A stretch of DNA of 64,000 nucleotides from Pirellulales bacterium (lineage in GTDB: Bacteria; Planctomycetota; Planctomycetia; Pirellulales; S012-138), in assembly GCA_028066245.1 (NCBI GenBank), contig JALCBR010000012.1:635-64634 (forward strand), written 5' to 3'. The position numbers were made by a program, and so were the translations under genes. This document shows positions 56,756 to 64,000 of this stretch, in pieces. The notes below the pieces were generated by a model, which saw nothing but the letters and a program-made list of their open reading frames with translations, was not told the origin of the DNA and searched no databases. Numbering within the stretch: position 1 is the stretch's first letter; each line of letters starts with the position of its first letter.

Positions 56756-57465
56756 CAGCCAGTTGACTCAACCGACTGTGTGAATGCAGGATCAACTCGA
56801 AATCGCGTTTTGAGCATGATCGCGGTGTGGTCGAACCGTTGCTGCACTGGCTCCCCTGTGGCCTGCTGTTGAAAAACTGGTCAGCTCCGCTTTCCACTGT
56901 TTGATATCCTCTAGCGTTCCGCGTCCCACCAAAGTGGAACTGCCCGAGCTCGGACTCCTTTGGCCGCGCCGGAGTGGATGGCCAATGAGGTCGCGCCACA
57001 TCCACGCGAACGTCGAGCCGGCGGCGGAGCGGCGGATTCTTCAGGTGGCGGACCGATCAATACAGCCACGTAGGGCATCCCTTGTTCCGTCTTAAACTCT
57101 TCGACTGCCGCAATCGCGCGGCTCCGCCGGGAGCACTTGGCTCTCGGCGTTCTGCGTTAACCGGATAGTCGGTGAATTTCGCTCACCGAAGAAAAGCTCC
57201 CCGGGCACAACCCTTTTCATAACTCTTCTCTGTTGGCCGAAATCCAGAAGCAGAGTTGAGGCAATGACTTAGCGATTCCGAGTCCGTTTCGGTCCCTGTC
57301 GCGCGAAAGCAACCCTTTACGGAAAATCAGAGCTTGGTTAACAGCGGATGCAATTTAATAGAGAGCGCGAGAATGTTCTCTGTTTGGGAACTGAGAGCGC
57401 GGTCGCATTCTGGATGCGAATCAGAGACGACGAGTGGGCCCTGAAATGATGTCGTGCAGGCCACG

Positions 57466-58905
57466 TTGCGGGGTGCAATAATAGCGCCATCTTCATGATG
57501 ATTCACAACTTGCGCATCTTACCCTAATTCAGCCGTGGCCAACATCTATCGCTCGCTTCTCCTCGTTATCGCAGGCGCTACGCAGAAGGAACTGGCGCGT
57601 CAGATCAAGTATCTCAAGGTTGAGAACGAGATCCTTCGGACAAGGATTCCCGGCAGGGTGTACGTCACACCCAAGGAGCGTCGGAGGCTGGTGAAGTTCG
57701 CAATGGGACTGTCGGCCAAAGCCATCAAACACCTTGTCTCGATCGTTCATCCCGAAACGGTGCTACGTTGGGTCCGCGAGAGCCGCAAAGAATGCAAGCC
57801 TCGTCAGAAAGCCAATCGTGGCCGCAGGCAGACGCCTGAGCAACTGCGACGATTGATCCGCAAGATGGCGAGAGAGAATGATTGGGGCTACACCCGAATC
57901 ATGGGCGAACTCAAGAAGCTGGGCATCAAGCCTCCGTCACGAAACACCGTCAAGAACATCCTGAAGCAATCCGGCTTCGATCCTGGTCCGAAGCGAGGTG
58001 AAGGAACCTGGGACGACTTCTTGAAACGGCACGCACATTCACTGTGGCAGTGTGATTTCCTCAGCCGTCGCGTGGTAACCTGGAAGGGATTTCGCCAAGT
58101 GTTTGTGCTGGCGTTTCTGCATGTGGAAACGCGGCGCGTGATTCTCTCACCGGCGACCTTCAAACATGACGCTGCTTGGGCTGAAGTACAGGCCAACGTT
58201 TTCGTGAATCAGGCCAGGGCCGACGGCTTGCGCGTTGCAAGAATAATGCACGACCGAGACAAGATGTTCTCAATCGCCTTCGATGCAACTTTGAATCGCA
58301 AGCGAGTGAAGATTCTGCGTTCGCCGTTTTGTTCACCAAACATCAACGCCTACGTCGAAAGGTTCGTGCAATCGATCAAGCAGGAGTGCCTGGACCACTT
58401 CATCGTGTTCGGCACGCAGCACATGGATTACCTGTGCGGCCAGTATCTCGAATACTATCACACCGAGCGACCGCATCAGGACAAAGAAAACGAGCTGCTG
58501 CTTCGGCCCGAAAGGGCCTCGCCCGCCGACAGAGATGATGCAGGGCTGCCGATGCTGCGTGAAGTTCGCTGCCGCTCACGGCTTGGCGGTCTGCTGAACT
58601 CGTACTCGCGAAGAGCCGCGTAGAGTCCCGTAAAGCAATGGCCTTTGCCAGTCGGAACTCGCATACGGACGTGCTGCGCACTCTCGGCACAGCAGAGGCG
58701 GGCTCATGCCCTCAATCGCCTGCGGAATCCGCGCTACTGCATGGTGAGCCGCGGCAACTTGCTCCCCTATCCTCAACCAGGCACCCGCGACAACATTTTT
58801 GCACGGGACGGTGCAAAAAGTTCACGCTGCAAGGCAAAACGCCCTGGCAACTTGCTCCCATCAACAGCGACCAAATCTCGCAACAACATTTTTGCACAGG
58901 ACGGT
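57466..58905 (+). mobile_element. IS-like element with integrase-core transposase, plus a 93-bp miniature end duplication
   Basis: Candidate left end GGGGTGCAATAAT near 57470-57482; right-end motif TTTTTGCAC(G/A)GGACGG twice (58790-58812 and 58883-58905). Boundaries are approximate. Confidence 0.65.
57535..58623 (+). CDS. DDE transposase, integrase core (rve) domain with N-terminal HTH
   Basis: YLKVENEILR; WGYTRIMGELKKLG; LWQCDF; MHDRD; PNINAYVERFVQSIKQECLD; YYHTERPHQ; RLGGLL. Confidence 0.92.
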   Translation: MANIYRSLLLVIAGATQKELARQIKYLKVENEILRTRIPGRVYVTPKERRRLVKFAMGLSAKAIKHLVSIVHPETVLRWVRESRKECKPRQKANRGRRQTPEQLRRLIRKMARENDWGYTRIMGELKKLGIKPPSRNTVKNILKQSGFDPGPKRGEGTWDDFLKRHAHSLWQCDFLSRRVVTWKGFRQVFVLAFLHVETRRVILSPATFKHDAAWAEVQANVFVNQARADGLRVARIMHDRDKMFSIAFDATLNRKRVKILRSPFCSPNINAYVERFVQSIKQECLDHFIVFGTQHMDYLCGQYLEYYHTERPHQDKENELLLRPERASPADRDDAGLPMLREVRCRSRLGGLLNSYSRRAA

Positions 58906-59183: not shown

Positions 59184-59792
59184 CTAATCAGTTGGCCGGG
59201 CGCGCTTCCAAAGCTCCTTGATCCTCTTGAGTTTGTATTCAACGGTTCTGACTGTCTTGCCGATGCACTTGGCAATTTCGGCGTTCGAATGATTTTCAAG
59301 TTTCAACATCGCAACGCGATAGAGTTGATCATGTTTCTTCAACAGTCCAATGAGGTATTTGAACTCATCCGTGACGGCCACAACAAAATCGGGGAGAGGC
59401 TCCGCATCGGCGATGTCCATTGGAGATCCGCCATCCTCTGGAGAATCAAATTCCGAGATGTTGCGGACGCGAAAGGCACCGCGCTTTAGACGGCTATGGT
59501 AGCGAACCGCATTGACAGCTTTACGTTCCGCCAGCACCAATAGAATCTGCCACACATCACTCCGATCGTTCAATTGTGAGAACTTTTGCTGCTCGGCGCC
59601 ACGACAGAAACTCTCAAAAGCTGAGATTGCTATGTCCTCTTCATCCATGATCCCGCGCGAAACGCGGTCACGCAACTTGAGGCGGCATTGTTCTACCAGC
59701 CTTGTGAAAAACCGATTCCAGATCTCTTGAGCGGCGACGCTGTCCCCTTTCGCTAGACCTTCCAGCCAAACTGTAATCGATGATGTCGACAT
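59184..59792 (-). CDS. ECF-type sigma factor, planctomycete kinase-associated type
   Basis: SITVWL...GD..AAQEIWNRFF; DEEDIAISAFESF; LNDRSDVWQIL; region 4 SNAEIA......RTVEYKLKRI. Confidence 0.9.
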   Translation of the reverse strand: MSTSSITVWLEGLAKGDSVAAQEIWNRFFTRLVEQCRLKLRDRVSRGIMDEEDIAISAFESFCRGAEQQKFSQLNDRSDVWQILLVLAERKAVNAVRYHSRLKRGAFRVRNISEFDSPEDGGSPMDIADAEPLPDFVVAVTDEFKYLIGLLKKHDQLYRVAMLKLENHSNAEIAKCIGKTVRTVEYKLKRIKELWKRARPTD

Positions 59793-60006
59793 GAGGTGTG
59801 TTGGGGGGCGGCTAGGCAATGCATAGGATATTCAGACGCTCAAACGCGATTCTGGTTCGCCGTGCAGCGCTGGTCAAATAGAAGCCGCCAATTTTGTCGA
59901 AGGACTCCTATTGCACCGTCAGGTCGCACGATCCGTCCATTTCCTGACCAGACATGATTTCTTGTGCAAACTGCTATGAGGATTGGGGGGCCCTTTGGAC
60001 CTGCTG

Positions 60007-60244
60007 GCAGTTCGGCGTCAGCCAGCAACCGCTTCAGCCGGACGTTCTCTTTCTCGAGTTCCTTAAGACGCTTGGCCTGATCGTTGCGGATGCCACCGTA
60101 TTCTTTGCGCCAACGATAATACGTCTGCTCTGTTACTACCAGCTTCTTGCAGACTCGGCCTACCGTCAGGCCTTTGGACAATTCAACCTCCGCTTCGCGG
60201 AGCTTGGAGATAATCTGATCGATCGTGAATGGCTTTCGTGCCAT
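60007..60244 (-). pseudogene. IS3-family transposase OrfA remnant (no OrfB)
   Basis: MARKPFTIDQIISKLREAE...EQTYYRWRKEYGG...KRLKELEKENVRLKRLLAD; the similarity stops after ADAEL. Confidence 0.85.
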
Positions 60245-60385
60245 GGACGCGGTTAAAGGGCAAGCCACGTCAGCAACAGATAAACTCTTGACAATCTGTA
60301 CACGCAGCAATAGAACGGTAGCGTTTGTCGCGGCGGACGTTCCTATTTGGTTTGACCAACCTCGTGGTAGACGCACTGCGAAAGA

Positions 60386-61318
60386 GTGGGCAGGCTAGTG
60401 GTCTCTGCAAAAGAAAAAACAGCCCCGAGCCAAAGCTGGAGAGGCTTTGGTGTTTTGTGTGCTGCCTTGGGATGCTTTTTGGTGTTGGCGGCGTTTTTGA
60501 AGGGCCAACAGCTCGCGGGCGGCAGCTTTAGAGGGGATTTCCTTTTGGCTTCCCCTTGGCTCCAGGTAGTTTCTATTCAAACAGAAATCTTGCTCGGATG
60601 TTGGCTGCTCTCTGGCATTGCACCACGGGCGTCTTGGATTGCTACCCTGGCGTTTTTTGTTGCAATGAGTTCCATGAGCGCAGTGATTGCGGTTCAAGGG
60701 CAAGCAACTTGCGACTGCCTTGGTGCAATTCCCGTTAGTCCATGGCTGATGACAGTCGTGGATGGTGCCATCGTCTTGTTGCTACTTGTGCTCCGTCCGC
60801 CGCTTCGCGGACCGCTTCGAAAGGCTCGCTGGTCTCGGCAATTTGGAAGGCTGGCGCTAACGTCTGGCGTAATGTTTGTCGCTATCACCAGCGTGTTTCT
60901 AGCGGTAAACCACGATCCACTGCAAGCGTTTGCTCGCATGCGCGGTGAAGCACTGATTGTTTCACCAGCTCTTACGCGAGTTGGTGCAGGGGTGGTTGGT
61001 GAGCAACGAAGCATATCCGTGCGAGTACAGAATATTAGCGACCGAAGCATTACTGTCATATCAGGGGACAGGAGTTGCAACTGTTTGACCCTAGGGAAAC
61101 TGCCACTCCGATTAGCACCGCAGGAATCCTGTGGGCTAGAATTGAGGATGTTTTACAAAGGTGAGCTTGGTGATTTTCAGCACCATGTCAGGTTTTCGAC
61201 GGATGACCCGCTTCATCCTAATTTCGTAGTGTGGTTTTCGGGTGAGGTTGTGGCAGCCGATTCGTTGCAAGCTTGTTTGGCGAACAGCCCACAAAAGGCA
61301 GTTGTCGACGGACGATAG
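60386..61318 (+). CDS. MauE/DoxX-family membrane protein fused to a DUF1573-like Ig-fold domain
   Basis: LAAFLK, EILLGCWLLSG, GQATCDCLGAI (MauE-type CxC); C-terminal VQNISDRSITV...SCNC...LAPQES. Confidence 0.8.
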   Translation: MGRLVVSAKEKTAPSQSWRGFGVLCAALGCFLVLAAFLKGQQLAGGSFRGDFLLASPWLQVVSIQTEILLGCWLLSGIAPRASWIATLAFFVAMSSMSAVIAVQGQATCDCLGAIPVSPWLMTVVDGAIVLLLLVLRPPLRGPLRKARWSRQFGRLALTSGVMFVAITSVFLAVNHDPLQAFARMRGEALIVSPALTRVGAGVVGEQRSISVRVQNISDRSITVISGDRSCNCLTLGKLPLRLAPQESCGLELRMFYKGELGDFQHHVRFSTDDPLHPNFVVWFSGEVVAADSLQACLANSPQKAVVDGR

Positions 61319-61369
61319 TAGTCCATTGATTTGATTGACTGCGAATACGTACTTTGAAAGGAGAATTCA

Positions 61370-61654
61370 ATGCGACAAACTTATCATTCGGCCAGTTTTG
61401 CTTTTGGAAGCCTGGGTATTGCCTTGCTGCTTTGTTGTTTGGTGCTAATGCCGAACACGGCACTAGCAGGGATAGGAGGTGGTGGTGAGGAGTTTGAGGA
61501 AGATCAGTGCCCAACAGCTTTTCGAGGGGGATTTGCAGTCGGTTGTGCCGTTCCACTTACTACGGTGTGCGATTTCGGAGGCGTGCCGAAGAATTGCGTG
61601 ATACTCCCACTGGGCGGTGCCCAATTCGGATGCACATGCCATATGATGCCTTAA
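61370..61654 (+). CDS. Small secreted Cys-rich peptide (six Cys in the predicted mature part)
   Basis: AAGGAG RBS; signal peptide ending ALA; mature GIGGGGEEFEEDQC...C...C...C...CTCHMMP. Confidence 0.8.
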   Translation: MRQTYHSASFAFGSLGIALLLCCLVLMPNTALAGIGGGGEEFEEDQCPTAFRGGFAVGCAVPLTTVCDFGGVPKNCVILPLGGAQFGCTCHMMP

Positions 61655-62126
61655 CCGGTGAGGCTGCCCTCTCGCGTCGCCCAAAAATCCACCTTGAAGG
61701 CTAGGCATAAGTACCAACGTTCAGCAGTTAACTGAATGTGTGATTGCCAATTCGCTCTTTTCTTGAGCGTAAAGTGATAGTCCCAGTAAAGCAGAACCGA
61801 TGGCTACGGCTCTTCGAATGGCAACTGGGCAGCTTGGTGTTGCGTTGTTTCGCTCGTCTTTAGACAGTAGTTCACTTGCCAGAGTCAGTTTGAAAACCGG
61901 TGGTGCAGCATTGCAAACACTGGATTCGCAGAGAAATGATGGTTTCCCTCCGAAGAACAGGTTTTGAAACTGCCTCTAGCGTTTGGTCGGTGTATTGAAA
62001 CTTCGTGCCAGCAATTCTTGGTACGGAGCTTGGACAGCGTCGTGCGCGTGCAGCTACTCATTTCAATTGCAAGGTTCCCTCGTGTGTAGTGCCTGCAAAA
62101 AGAGAGAAAACCAAAGAGCAATCTTG

Positions 62127-63146
62127 GTGAATTGTCTTGCCATTGGCTTAGTATCCCTTTCTTGCTTTCCGGCGAATGCTGTCGCAAGCAAACCCAATGA
62201 TGTACGCGATGAGTTCATTGAACGCTATTCACCTTACGCTCGGTCGTTGAGGGAGTTTTATGGACAATTTGAAGCAACCCTTGTTATGGGTGTTGCACCT
62301 GCTCTGAGTTCCACCGGTTCAACAACAAAGACAGTTGCGGAGGGCCGAGGCTTTCATGAGTCTCACTTGTTTGAGCAGAAGTCGTTCTTACTAAAGCCTG
62401 GCCAGGACCTCGCCGATTCGACGCCCGGCAGGATTCATACTTCCGTCAGAAACTCAAAGTACGGCTTTGAATTAGTTACAGACGCAGAGGGCAATCGAAC
62501 TCCGGAAAATATCATTGTCCATGCAACTGGAGGCCATTCACCTCTTTGTGTTCTGACGGTGCCATATGCCGACACCACACGAGGGATGACGATTTTAGCT
62601 GTCGCGCAAGATCCTAGTACGGAAATCATTTCGCTAAAGCCGATTTCTTGGAATGGCACAAGCCTAGAATGTTTGACGACTCGGCATCGATCAATCAATC
62701 GCCGGACACACAAAGAGGAAGGCGTTACCGTTCGCTACTACCTCGATCCGGGACGTGATTGGATTTGCATGCGCCAAACTATTGAGACCATGGAAGGGGG
62801 CATTCGAGGCTGGATCGAACTTACTTGCAAGTACAACGAAAGCAGCGAAGGATTGCCACCACTGCTGGAAGTTGTGACGTCGATGGGCGATACAAGCGAT
62901 AATCCCGCGACGAACCGAGTACTCGGATCTACAACTGTGACGAGTTTTAGGCACACCGACGACCCAATCACGGAAGGGGAATGTCGACTGATAGCATTCG
63001 GATTTCCTGAACCAGGGGGTGTGAAGTGGGGTGAGCCTGTATCGTGGTGGGTGTGGCTTGGCTATGTCGGTGGCGGTTGTTTGCTGTTGGCGTTTTTCTT
63101 CTTCCTAATGAAGCAGCGGGTCGCATCCAAAGCCGGGACGAACTAG
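62127..63146 (+). CDS. Exported beta-rich protein with C-terminal membrane anchor
   Basis: Signal-like N-terminus; LDPGRDW; C.L.AFGFPEP followed by a TM helix and basic tail. Start uncertain (ORF track gives 61983). Confidence 0.75.
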   Translation: MNCLAIGLVSLSCFPANAVASKPNDVRDEFIERYSPYARSLREFYGQFEATLVMGVAPALSSTGSTTKTVAEGRGFHESHLFEQKSFLLKPGQDLADSTPGRIHTSVRNSKYGFELVTDAEGNRTPENIIVHATGGHSPLCVLTVPYADTTRGMTILAVAQDPSTEIISLKPISWNGTSLECLTTRHRSINRRTHKEEGVTVRYYLDPGRDWICMRQTIETMEGGIRGWIELTCKYNESSEGLPPLLEVVTSMGDTSDNPATNRVLGSTTVTSFRHTDDPITEGECRLIAFGFPEPGGVKWGEPVSWWVWLGYVGGGCLLLAFFFFLMKQRVASKAGTN

Positions 63147-63153
63147 GCTATGT

Positions 63154-63696
63154 TTGAGCGACTATAGCACACACAAAAAAGCGCAGGATTTAGCCCGATT
63201 AAGCTCGCAGAAGAGATTCGCTGACATGGCCAAGGTGCTCACCGTAGTCGGAATCTTGGCTCTTGGGGCTGCTGGATGGGGATATTGCGTAGCTGCTCAG
63301 ACTCGTAGTTCGGTCTTGGAGATCAACGATTCTGCTCTTCAGGCATTGGCTTCAAGGCCCTTACGGCCAGGTGAATATGAGGTCATCGTCTACGTCCGCA
63401 ACATTTCAGCTCAACCACAGCGCGTGCTTAGCGTGACTTCAAGTTGCTTTGATGGTTGCTGCTTTGCAGCTGCGCAACCACTTCCCATTGGCATCCCTGC
63501 CGACTCATCTGTCAGAGTTACGGTCAAAGTTGAGATATCCGCACACTCTGGCGAAGAATTCCACGGTGCACCAAAGCTGTTATTGGATGACAATGGTGTA
63601 ATACGAGAACACCAATTGGCATTCGATGGTCGTATTGCCCTTGACGATCAGGTGCCCAAAGTGCTTACGGAATCAAATGCTCACTCTGTCAAATGA
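63154..63696 (+). CDS. Membrane-anchored DUF1573-like Ig-fold protein with Cys cluster
   Basis: TM helix, then VRNISAQPQRVLSVTSSCFDGCC...PIGIPA. Start may be ATG 63226. Confidence 0.65.
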   Translation: MSDYSTHKKAQDLARLSSQKRFADMAKVLTVVGILALGAAGWGYCVAAQTRSSVLEINDSALQALASRPLRPGEYEVIVYVRNISAQPQRVLSVTSSCFDGCCFAAAQPLPIGIPADSSVRVTVKVEISAHSGEEFHGAPKLLLDDNGVIREHQLAFDGRIALDDQVPKVLTESNAHSVK

Positions 63697-64000
63697 GAGA
63701 TGTAACGGCTTGTCTTTCCAGGATGTTGCGTCGCCGCCGCTTAGTACTTGGCTGTCTTGCAATTCTACATGTACTGCTAGTAGCATTCTGCGCTTTGCGA
63801 AGTGCGCCCACGATTGATGAGCCGGGACACTTAGTAGCTGGCCTTAGCAATTGGAAATTCGCGAACTTCGACCTTTACCAGGTAAATCCACCACTAGTTC
63901 GCACTGTGGCATCACTTCCTTTTTTTCTCACGGAGCCGAGGACCGATTGGTCGCAGTTCAAGCCGGGTAAGGACCGTAGAGAATTCGTGTGTGGCAATGC
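63693..64000 (+). CDS. GT-C fold glycosyltransferase (ArnT/PMT, GT39/GT83-like), N-terminus only
   Basis: Not in the ORF track (open at the edge). Manual translation: TM, SAPTIDEPGHLVAGLSNW.F..F.LYQVNPPLVRTVASLP, with the DE catalytic motif; ATGA overlap with the upstream gene. Confidence 0.85.
   Translation, partial: MRDVTACLSRMLRRRRLVLGCLAILHVLLVAFCALRSAPTIDEPGHLVAGLSNWKFANFDLYQVNPPLVRTVASLPFFLTEPRTDWSQFKPGKDRREFVCGN

Follow-up and report, generated by a model that had tools for sequence, protein, structure and literature searches.

A recurrent planctomycete gene cassette that may fold a secreted disulfide-rich mini-protein outside the cytoplasm

The 64,000-nucleotide (nt) stretch of DNA analysed here (the window; G000:C168:635-64634, from contig JALCBR010000012.1 of assembly GCA_028066245.1) derives from a Pirellulales bacterium of the phylum Planctomycetota and closes, from position 60386 to its edge, with five genes on the plus strand which by sequence comparison appear to be one copy of a recurrent planctomycete cassette. 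The first gene, p1 (MD, 60386..61318), encodes a protein of 310 amino acids (aa) that was identified from the list of open reading frames (ORFs) and Pfam as a fusion of a MauE-type membrane domain and a DUF1573 domain. It is followed by p2 (c, 61370..61654), a 94-aa signal-peptide precursor with six cysteines in its mature part which was recognised from the ORF list and a leave-one-out model, and by p3 (A, 61983..63146), a C-terminally anchored exported protein of 387 aa counted from the first start, as judged from its ORF, hydropathy and family alignments. The fourth gene, p4 (D, 63154..63696, with an alternative ATG start at 63226), encodes a membrane-tethered DUF1573 protein of 180 aa that was detected with a DUF1573 model derived from the cassettes, and p5 (G) encodes a GT-C glycosyltransferase of 615 aa matched by the PMT_2 and PMT models. 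An earlier note, made from the letters of the window alone, had described five co-oriented genes in AT-richer DNA, a translationally coupled glycosyltransferase gene and a cluster cut by the window edge, and all of these descriptions hold. The five ORFs lie in the places it gave, and the p4 stop and the p5 start share an ATGA overlap. p5 occupies 63693..64000 in the window and is truncated there, but is whole on the contig, where it extends to the window-equivalent position 65540 (L002:3693-5540); the contig ends 1955 nt beyond the window and 415 nt past the p5 stop, and p5 is the last gene that can be read. The GC content is 51.0% in 60386-64000 compared with 56.0% for the genome, and that of third codon positions (GC3) is 0.44-0.54 in the five cassette genes compared with 0.63 in the 799 long ORFs of the genome.

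The recurrence of this arrangement was followed with a profile of the A family built from four sequences of the p3 family. Of 300 other genomes in the order, this profile matched 38, which represent 13 of the 30 families; in a phylum-wide sample of 400 genomes it matched one. Forty loci from 30 genomes were taken on the A match alone with approximately 9 kb on each side, among 55 loci in all; 12 weaker matches (E 4.6e-8 and worse) of the 63 obtained with the A profile were left out, and MauE, DUF1573, A and GT-C were mapped in the loci with iterated models. Already in the first loci fetched, a p5-type GT-C gene and a gene for a p3-like protein with the same C-terminal anchor adjoin MauE genes. 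The order (M)D > c > A, in which M denotes MauE and D denotes DUF1573, is found in 17 of the 40 loci taken on the A match and, when all 55 are counted, in 20, while A > D occurs in nine of the 55, A > D > G as in the window in four, and GT-C anywhere in the map in 13. Within 5 kb of a full A gene (38 loci), 27 loci have DUF1573, 21 have a peptide ORF and 20 have the two together; MauE is present in nine and GT-C in eight. The conserved core consists of DUF1573, peptide and anchored protein, and MauE and GT-C are optional. The earlier note had asked whether small Cys-rich ORFs co-occur with MauE-DUF1573 and GT-C genes in other genomes, and they do, the peptide lying between D or MD and A in those 17 loci. 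Named metagenome-assembled genomes of Gemmataceae and Gemmatales likewise have MD > c > A, and the cultured strain Planctomyces sp. SH-PL62 has on its plasmid pPL62-2 the order GT2 > DUF1573 > IS5 > 8-Cys peptide > A > DUF1559 > MauE-like > TlpA-family. Literature searches found no paper describing the cassette, in keeping with the statement of the earlier note that it knew of no characterised system with this layout.

In p1 the MauE-type domain spans approximately residues 20-140 and is followed by a fifth transmembrane helix at residues 156-174 and the Ig-like DUF1573 domain, which by hydropathy this fifth helix places outside; the soluble domains of all cassette proteins are predicted in the same way to face outward. 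Both CxC motifs that had been read in p1 are present, C109-D-C111 between the helices at 85-103 and 117-135 (the third and fourth) and C231-N-C233 in the Ig domain. The MauE domain of p1 scores 26.0 bits by hmmscan and 29 bits in a six-frame search (Pfam cut-off 27), and MauE is over the cut-off in seven of ten cassette relatives. Across 25 cassette MauE domains the CxC is kept in 25/25, a lysine of helix 1 in 92%, a glutamate of helix 2 in 96% and the glycine after the CxC in 100%, and p1 retains all of the conserved residues (K, E, F, CxC, G and P). At the level of sequence these features match those of DsbB-like MauE proteins as described in the accessible part of a recent preprint (bioRxiv 10.64898/2026.03.05.709764), according to which MauE proteins from two phyla substitute for DsbB in E. 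coli, mutation of either cysteine of a periplasmic CxC located between helices 3 and 4 abolishes activity, F and G are conserved after the CxC and K and E on helices 1 and 2, and 8.2% of MauE entries are fused to thioredoxin-superfamily domains. The same part of the preprint makes no mention of DUF1573 or of planctomycetes. Homologues of p1 were found in nine of 40 relatives, none of them in the same genus; p1 had no match among plasmids and nothing meaningful was found for it in the PDB by sequence. p1 is the sole MauE match of the genome in the six-frame search, and DsbB and VKOR searches of this genome, which is 97.5% complete, gave no match. The only recognisable disulfide-generating membrane enzyme of the organism is encoded in an accessory island.

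The second component of the fusion, DUF1573 (PF07610), scores 18.3 bits in p1, below its cut-off of 26.1, and p4 has no Pfam match at E<=0.01. A DUF1573 model built from cassette relatives nevertheless recognises p4 at 5e-12, and among these relatives DUF1573 is over the cut-off in four of eight MD proteins and in two of ten small D proteins, being the top family in nine of those ten; the DUF1573 membership of p1 and p4 is argued from homology to such relatives. p4 appears to consist of an N-terminal membrane anchor and a DUF1573-like Ig domain whose cysteine pair is spaced CFDGCC, not CxC, and the second Cys-bearing Ig protein of the earlier note is in this sense a DUF1573 relative with the family cysteine pair. 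The two columns of the pair are kept in 92% and 91% of 53 DUF1573 domains, of which seven have the wider spacing seen in p4, and each of 20 small D proteins has the pair. Compared with the PDB, the D profile finds ASH/HYDIN-type Ig domains (1.8e-7). DUF1573 is tabulated as a selenoprotein family with the motif UGC in the available portions of two reviews (PMC9312934, PMC13188914), which marks the first cysteine of the pair as chemically active. Literature searches on DUF1573 function, or on DUF1573 with MauE or planctomycetes, returned none on function. One database protein, P0074 (524 aa), has an A-family domain at 8-321 followed by a DUF1573 domain at 399-487 (31.6 bits), which would be either a natural fusion of the two or the product of reading through from A into D, genes that are commonly paired in this order.

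The recurrence of the gene order bears on a first alternative, in which p1 would be a general periplasmic disulfide oxidase and p5 a general envelope or lipid glycosyltransferase, with the peptide and A as unrelated neighbours or envelope proteins. The position of p1 as the only MauE, DsbB or VKOR match of a nearly complete genome is what such a housekeeping role would predict, and MauE, encoded in 164 of 301 genomes from the order, is much more widespread than the A family (39 of 301). Most genes of the GT-C subfamily lie apart from A genes, this genome encodes a second copy, the preprint argues in its accessible part that MauE is a generalist, and Cys-rich YTV proteins have been described in planctomycete cell-wall preparations in the part of PMC8567305 that was available. 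Against this, a housekeeping gene would hardly be expected in a low-GC island without a same-genus counterpart, 17 of the 40 A-chosen loci repeat the order (M)D > c > A, the peptide ORFs are concentrated at one position, and the MauE-DUF1573 and A+DUF1573 fusions tie the parts together. The peptides also have no consistent Pfam match and hence none to the YTV model. A housekeeping role for the genes is regarded as improbable.

The peptide precursor p2 has one hydrophobic N-terminal segment, consistent with a Sec-type signal, and a likely cleavage site between ALA and G (after ...NTALA) that leaves a mature part of 61 aa with six cysteines, ending in CTCHMMP; hydropathy and cysteine count thereby bear out the signal-peptide-bearing 6-Cys peptide that had been noticed before. 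p2 is placed like the peptide ORFs in 19 other loci, where the gap just 5' of the A gene contains, on the same strand, an ORF of 65-125 aa with a hydrophobic N-terminus, an AxA-like end and a Cys-rich tail. When ORFs were selected by a homology-free criterion (55-140 aa, one hydrophobic N-terminal stretch and at least six later cysteines), 32 of the 3784 ORFs in the 55 loci qualified, and for 22 of these 32 an A gene follows on the same strand at a distance of no more than 400 nt; seven of the remaining ten are within about 100 nt of another cassette gene and three are seemingly spurious. The aligned ORFs combine a related signal peptide with a hypervariable mature part built on a cysteine framework, commonly C-x-C, 5-12 residues and C-x-C at the end. 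A leave-one-out model made from 28 peptide ORFs of other loci, with p2 excluded, matched p2 and nothing else among the 46,483 ORFs of at least 40 aa in the genome (E 0.013, 17.3 bits), and the codon pattern of p2 (GC1>GC2) is that of the neighbouring genes. These comparisons suggest that p2 is a divergent member of the peptide family. Pfam and NCBIfam contain no family for p2 or for the 27 aligned peptides, none of which shows a consistent Pfam match. It is hardly credible that p2 is not a gene and that the peptide ORFs are chance frames in intergenic DNA: a database search with p2 alone did retrieve one match only, p2 itself, and its leave-one-out score is weak, but position, strand, signal peptide, even cysteine count and C-terminal CxC pattern all recur, and the peptide profile retrieved from the database, in a word-based search, ten short 'hypothetical' proteins of 74-94 aa, one of which is p2 as called by another pipeline.

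The mature peptides have a median of 53 aa and eight cysteines (range 34-97 aa) and consist of 16% Cys, 0.9% His, 5% aromatic residues and 15% Ser+Thr. Of 29 peptides, 26 have an even number of cysteines in the mature part (binomial p=1.5e-5) and 22 a CxC within the final nine residues, and identity in the mature part is only 12.5% when Cys-Cys columns are excluded. The even cysteine count and the low histidine content suggest a fully disulfide-bonded mini-protein rather than a thiolate metal binder, and the peptides fit this description. The richness in cysteine, the CxC motifs and the paucity of aromatic residues might also be expected of periplasmic metallothionein-like binders, with the CxC motifs of DUF1573 and MauE binding or relaying metal, and the D profile does touch a Cu(I)-binding protein in the PDB, with a non-significant E of 0.17. 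Such a role in metal handling is considered very unlikely, as even cysteine counts are expected of paired disulfides and not of thiolate clusters, and no metal transporter or sensor recurs nearby. The periplasmic compartment is moreover oxidising, which also counts against it. In the accessible part of the preprint (10.64898/2026.03.05.709764) the MauE CxC is furthermore an experimentally shown disulfide-forming site. Searched against the PDB by sequence, the peptides gave nothing meaningful and no likeness to a solved toxin or bacteriocin.

The C-terminally anchored exported protein of the earlier note is recognisable in p3 from hydrophobic segments at both ends and a basic tail. A signal-like segment lies at ORF residues 46-64 (the stretch starts near 62097), ahead of a domain of some 290 aa, a C-terminal transmembrane helix at residues 357-375 and the tail. 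Members of the A family end in the pattern ...EF.L.AFG[FL]PEP, approximately eight residues, a tryptophan, the helix and a basic tail, as in the window at 62990-63146, where p3 reads AFGFPEP, and have no conserved cysteine. The iterated A model matches p3 at 3e-87. In a set of 1.84 billion, the family accounts for 6553 cluster representatives at E<=0.001 and for 5032 at E<=1e-10, and the members that bear a name are annotated as hypothetical proteins from Planctomycetia or Pirellulales. None of 50 A members was matched by a Pfam or NCBIfam model, a word-based search with p3 alone found no homologue, the A profile A2 found none among much longer proteins, and nothing meaningful was found for A in the PDB by sequence. 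A structural model is available for one member, the A protein of locus L020, which is identical letter for letter to entry P0152 of the ESM Atlas (predicted TM-score, pTM, 0.71). Compared with clusters of LolA-like/TP_0789-like, DUF4292 and DUF6503 proteins, this model reaches TM-scores of 0.60-0.63 by target and 0.47-0.49 by query over 208-221 residues, and by homology to the modelled member the A family including p3 probably has a LolA-like fold. At the sequence level none of 50 A proteins matches the LolA-like family (PF17131 and its clan) at E<=0.01, and searches of the relatives' genomes with Pfam LolA_like and MucB_RseB gave no match on A genes. The G[FL]PEP of the tail is reminiscent of PEP-CTERM, and the genome does encode an exosortase (C45:55412-56176, 197 bits). 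A PEP-CTERM/exosortase substrate was rejected for A, however, since the corresponding model (PF07589) gives six places at E<=1 of which none is p3. A planctomycete cluster of the Atlas (263 members, representative of 475 aa) partly resembles the A fold, with a TM-score of 0.65 by query, and AhpC-TSA is found in 48% of it; a fusion of an A-like domain with a thioredoxin domain is a possible reading of this cluster.

With a mean pairwise identity of 18%, compared with 31% for MauE and 43% for GT-C, A is the fastest-evolving large protein of the set. Together with the hypervariable mature part of peptides whose signals are related (12.5% identity outside the Cys-Cys columns), this recalls toxin-immunity pairs, in which the peptide would be a secreted antimicrobial or toxin, A its immunity protein, and MD, D and GT-C would mature the toxin. 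Arrays of A genes without peptides look like orphan immunity genes (A A A c A A in L091, A A in L097 and c A A in L083), and the patchy, island-like spread with flanking insertion sequence (IS) elements, the lack of a same-genus counterpart and the plasmid copy point in the same direction. On the other side, no outer-membrane exporter recurs in the cassette, no sequence likeness to a solved toxin or bacteriocin was found, and PADLOC, Pfam and NCBIfam place no family here. LolA-like folds carry hydrophobic ligands and are not known to act as immunity proteins, which also counts against this explanation. A toxin-immunity function is compatible with oxidative folding, but is judged possible rather than probable.

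The identification of the fifth gene as a GT-C glycosyltransferase is upheld by both PMT models, PMT_2 (PF13231) at 39.7 bits against a cut-off of 26.1 and PMT (PF02366) at 25.8 bits against 22.7. p5 is 36-42% identical to the cassette GT-Cs of nine other loci and has at least six hydrophobic segments; no solved relative was found in the PDB by sequence. In an alignment of 11 relatives E43 of the pair D42-E43 is nearly invariant and D170 and K210 are invariant, and D42-E43 is presumably the DE motif, the acidic residue in the first outward loop of GT-C enzymes. In a by-eye cross-check, 15 of the 150 listed MauE matches of the order, from 12 genomes, lie within 5 kb of a listed GT-C match, as p1 does; these counts concern the listed matches, beyond which there are 142 for MauE and 14 for GT-C. 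Since about one such pair would be expected by chance, a rough estimate that was not computed, MauE and this GT-C appear to form a module of their own, often as neighbours even where there is no A gene. Examples of MauE next to GT-C without A are G504:C318:10978-12817, G455:C2:52792-55051 and G549:C26:77025-82502. At L020:10577-11068, between an A gene and a second MauE-DUF1573 gene, a stand-alone ORF of 163 aa is homologous to the C-terminal outward domain of GT-C only.

Whether the glycosyltransferase acts on the peptide is a separate matter. Gene context suggests the peptide as sugar acceptor, and the acceptor may or may not be the peptide. The GT-C could instead glycosylate A, other exported proteins or lipid and travel with MauE for an unrelated reason, and the chance of this is put only a little short of even. 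A GT-C gene is present within 5 kb of A in just eight of the 38 loci, MauE-GT-C pairs without A exist (L022 and L027, and the 15 of 150 listed matches above), the second GT-C copy of the genome stands alone, and the plasmid cassette has a GT2 enzyme instead of a GT-C. An involvement with the peptide is favoured by the ATGA overlap with p4 and the repeated A > D > G order (4/55 loci), which indicate the same operon here, by the 15% Ser+Thr of the mature peptides, and by the fact that some kind of glycosyltransferase recurs with the cassette. The same-genus genome also has a copy of the lone GT-C.

Taken together, the favoured explanation of the five genes, which has a reasonable though not a commanding probability, is that they form a cassette dedicated to the oxidative folding, outside the cytoplasm, of a secreted disulfide-rich mini-protein that has a tethered partner. 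It is proposed that the 94-aa p2 precursor is exported and its signal removed after the AxA-type site, and that at the outer face of the cytoplasmic membrane the Ig domains of the membrane-tethered DUF1573 proteins then convert the six cysteines of the peptide into three disulfides. The DUF1573 cysteine pair would serve as the disulfide carrier in place of DsbA or MauD, and the DUF1573 domain of p1 would be re-oxidised by the fused MauE domain, which is envisaged as DsbB-like, probably quinone-linked and acting through its periplasmic CxC. A, with its LolA-like cradle, would be the dedicated partner of the peptide, whether as holder, chaperone or immunity protein, and the GT-C, drawing on a lipid-linked donor, would attach a sugar to an acceptor of the same pathway in the periplasm, be it the peptide or not; the binding of the peptide by A and the target of the GT-C are putative steps. 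The earlier note had envisaged an extracytoplasmic, RiPP-like folding line, RiPP standing for ribosomally synthesised and post-translationally modified peptide. The extracytoplasmic folding part of this idea agrees with the comparative evidence, namely the recurrent gene order, the outward topology and the retention of the MauE CxC, whereas the term 'RiPP-like' is a loose one. A strict RiPP cluster is at odds with the Sec-type signal with its AxA-like end and with the lack of a recurrent dedicated protease or exporter, no protease or ABC exporter family being recurrent within 6 kb of A genes.

Several observations weigh against a dedicated folding cassette. In p1 the MauE motif reads CDCLG where most cassette MauE domains read CGCFG, so that a leucine replaces the usual phenylalanine, and its hmmscan score is 1 bit below the Pfam cut-off. 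As the only DsbB-type gene of the genome, p1 could serve general folding, and the accessible part of the preprint (10.64898/2026.03.05.709764) cites an earlier study that read MauE as a reductase. We infer the redox role of DUF1573 from the conserved cysteine pair, the fusion and the selenoprotein listing. p2 is a weak member of its family, with an E of 0.013, a single C-terminal CxC where most members have two, and six cysteines, the lowest number of the set, and the modelled relative from L020 that suggests the fold of A is only 20% identical to p3. With MauE near A in only nine of 38 loci, an oxidase acting in trans, or none at all, must often suffice, and GT-C is near A in eight. The GT-C subfamily is encoded in 82 of 301 genomes as compared with 39 of 301 for A, most of its genes are located away from A genes, and the second copy in this genome (G000:C70:9168-11054, 678 bits to the cassette model) has a DUF1559-like gene and nuo genes as neighbours and no cassette. 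The MauE, DUF1573 and GT-C models were built from the same cassette loci, and the loci come from related genomes, several of them from one genome, so that the numbers given are counts and not independent trials.

The cassette can be likened in its logic to MauE/MauD-MauA, to DsbB-DsbA and to glycocin clusters, and by this comparison would be a member of none of them, since there are no mau dehydrogenase genes, no thioredoxin-fold carrier and no leader protease or exporter, and two of the five families are uncatalogued. As in the mau cluster, a MauE-family protein with a CxC is encoded beside a small exported disulfide-rich polypeptide, for the maturation of which it is needed in the mau case (10.64898/2026.03.05.709764 and PMC7794033, as far as their available parts go). 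In the cassette, however, the partner is a DUF1573 Ig domain and not the thioredoxin-like MauD, the candidate substrates are hypervariable peptides of 34-97 aa, and a LolA-like anchored protein and a GT-C are added. The cassette is not taken for a mau cluster, as MauA/MauB dehydrogenase genes were not found: none are among the cassette neighbours, and the methylamine dehydrogenase light chain model (Me-amine-dh_L) has no match in the genome, a weak control since control genomes gave none either. The decRiPPter candidates of Streptomyces come closer, in that mauE/mauD homologues beside predicted small precursor genes without a mau cluster were read as peptide-modifying (PMC7794033, available part); they belong to another phylum, are candidates only, and DUF1573, the A family and GT-C are not described in that part. 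In DsbB-DsbA pairs and in VKOR/MauE-thioredoxin fusions a four-helix membrane oxidase similarly hands disulfides to a periplasmic carrier that is sometimes fused to it, but the domain fused to MauE in the cassette is DUF1573, whose Ig-like fold, here with a CxC, is not known to carry disulfides, and the window contains no thioredoxin-fold carrier. Glycocin clusters such as that of sublancin (sunA, sunT, bdbA, sunS, bdbB and sunI) produce a disulfide-bonded glycosylated bacteriocin and encode a precursor, an immunity protein, a glycosyltransferase and a DsbA/DsbB-like pair. Glycocins are glycosylated in the cytoplasm by a GT2 enzyme using nucleotide sugar, have a double-glycine leader and are exported by a C39-ABC transporter, unlike the cassette with its Sec signal, its extracytoplasmic enzymes (GT-C, MauE and DUF1573) and no dedicated exporter. 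The Atlas model of the L020 A protein likewise matches clusters of the LolA/LolB/TP_0789-like fold (0.60-0.63 by target), but A differs from LolA and LolB in lacking sequence membership, in its C-terminal helix tether and in always standing beside a peptide or DUF1573 gene.

If the proposed folding pathway is true, it would provide a first function for DUF1573, a widespread domain already tabulated as a selenoprotein family, and would supply MauE, whose standing as a major disulfide-forming enzyme dates only from 2026, with a partner and with natural substrates. It would also point to a reservoir of disulfide-rich mini-proteins in the Planctomycetota, a phylum of natural-product interest, and offer a system in which a coupling of oxidative folding to glycosylation outside the cytoplasm can be tested. 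Two large uncatalogued families, the A family and the short, hypervariable and mostly unannotated peptides, would be defined by it as well. A bolder version, which can be entertained only tentatively, would make DUF1573 a non-thioredoxin disulfide carrier (Ig-like, CxC or UxC) that is re-oxidised by MauE and serves a very large family of hypervariable knottin-like peptides, each with its own LolA-like tethered immunity or receptor partner and some O-glycosylated outside the cytoplasm by the GT-C; if true, this diversification would parallel that of conotoxins or defensins in bacteria and would come with folding machinery of its own.

The plasmid copy in a cultured strain makes the cassette bench-testable. 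In this copy (L109, NZ_CP011275.1:36260-48913) the peptide is an unannotated ORF of 81 aa with eight cysteines at L109:5324-5569, and the 'hypothetical' gene at L109:7823-8761 is MauE-like (1.7e-29) and followed by the TlpA-family gene. Further families that recur within 6 kb of A are DUF1559-like proteins (14 loci), a TAT-signal family (seven) and an ABC ATPase (four). The DUF1559-type, pseudopilin-like genes number 16 in the 14 loci, for example L017:11457-12311 and L066:11676-12794; the family is very abundant in planctomycetes and its neighbourhood with A may be due to chance.

Upstream of the cassette the transposon debris of the earlier note is represented by two elements. An intact-looking rve_3/HTH_32 transposase of a multi-copy IS is encoded on the plus strand at 57535..58623, as determined by Pfam and DNA comparison, and a lone IS3 OrfA-type ORF (HTH_Tnp_1, 53.6 bits) lies on the minus strand at 59840..60376, directly upstream of p1. 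The same-genus genome G001 matches the window DNA only as far as 58627, and the DNA beyond this point, including the lone OrfA-type ORF and the cassette, has no counterpart there. The transposase element (57025-58626) matches at least six G001 contigs with 83-91% identity and is the last stretch with DNA matches in that genome, while the OrfA-type ORF is debris at the island border. The low GC and GC3, the IS elements upstream and the lack of a same-genus counterpart identify the five-gene cassette as an accessory island. A scan of the region for promoters and terminators stayed at chance level, with no terminator after p2; Rfam has no family in the window, PADLOC has no match for any of the five cassette proteins, and a sequence-archive lookup listed no RNA dataset as containing the stretch and one DNA run only, which may stem from the source sample. 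Between the IS remnants, a planctomycete-type extracytoplasmic function (ECF) sigma factor (PF07638, 85.6 bits) is encoded on the minus strand at 59184-59819; no anti-sigma gene was recognised beside it, and ECF genes are not recurrent near the cassette in the other loci. Just 3' of the transposase gene, at 58748-58905, a 93-nt unit occurs twice in tandem, with blocks of 19 and 27 nt that are 89-93% identical.

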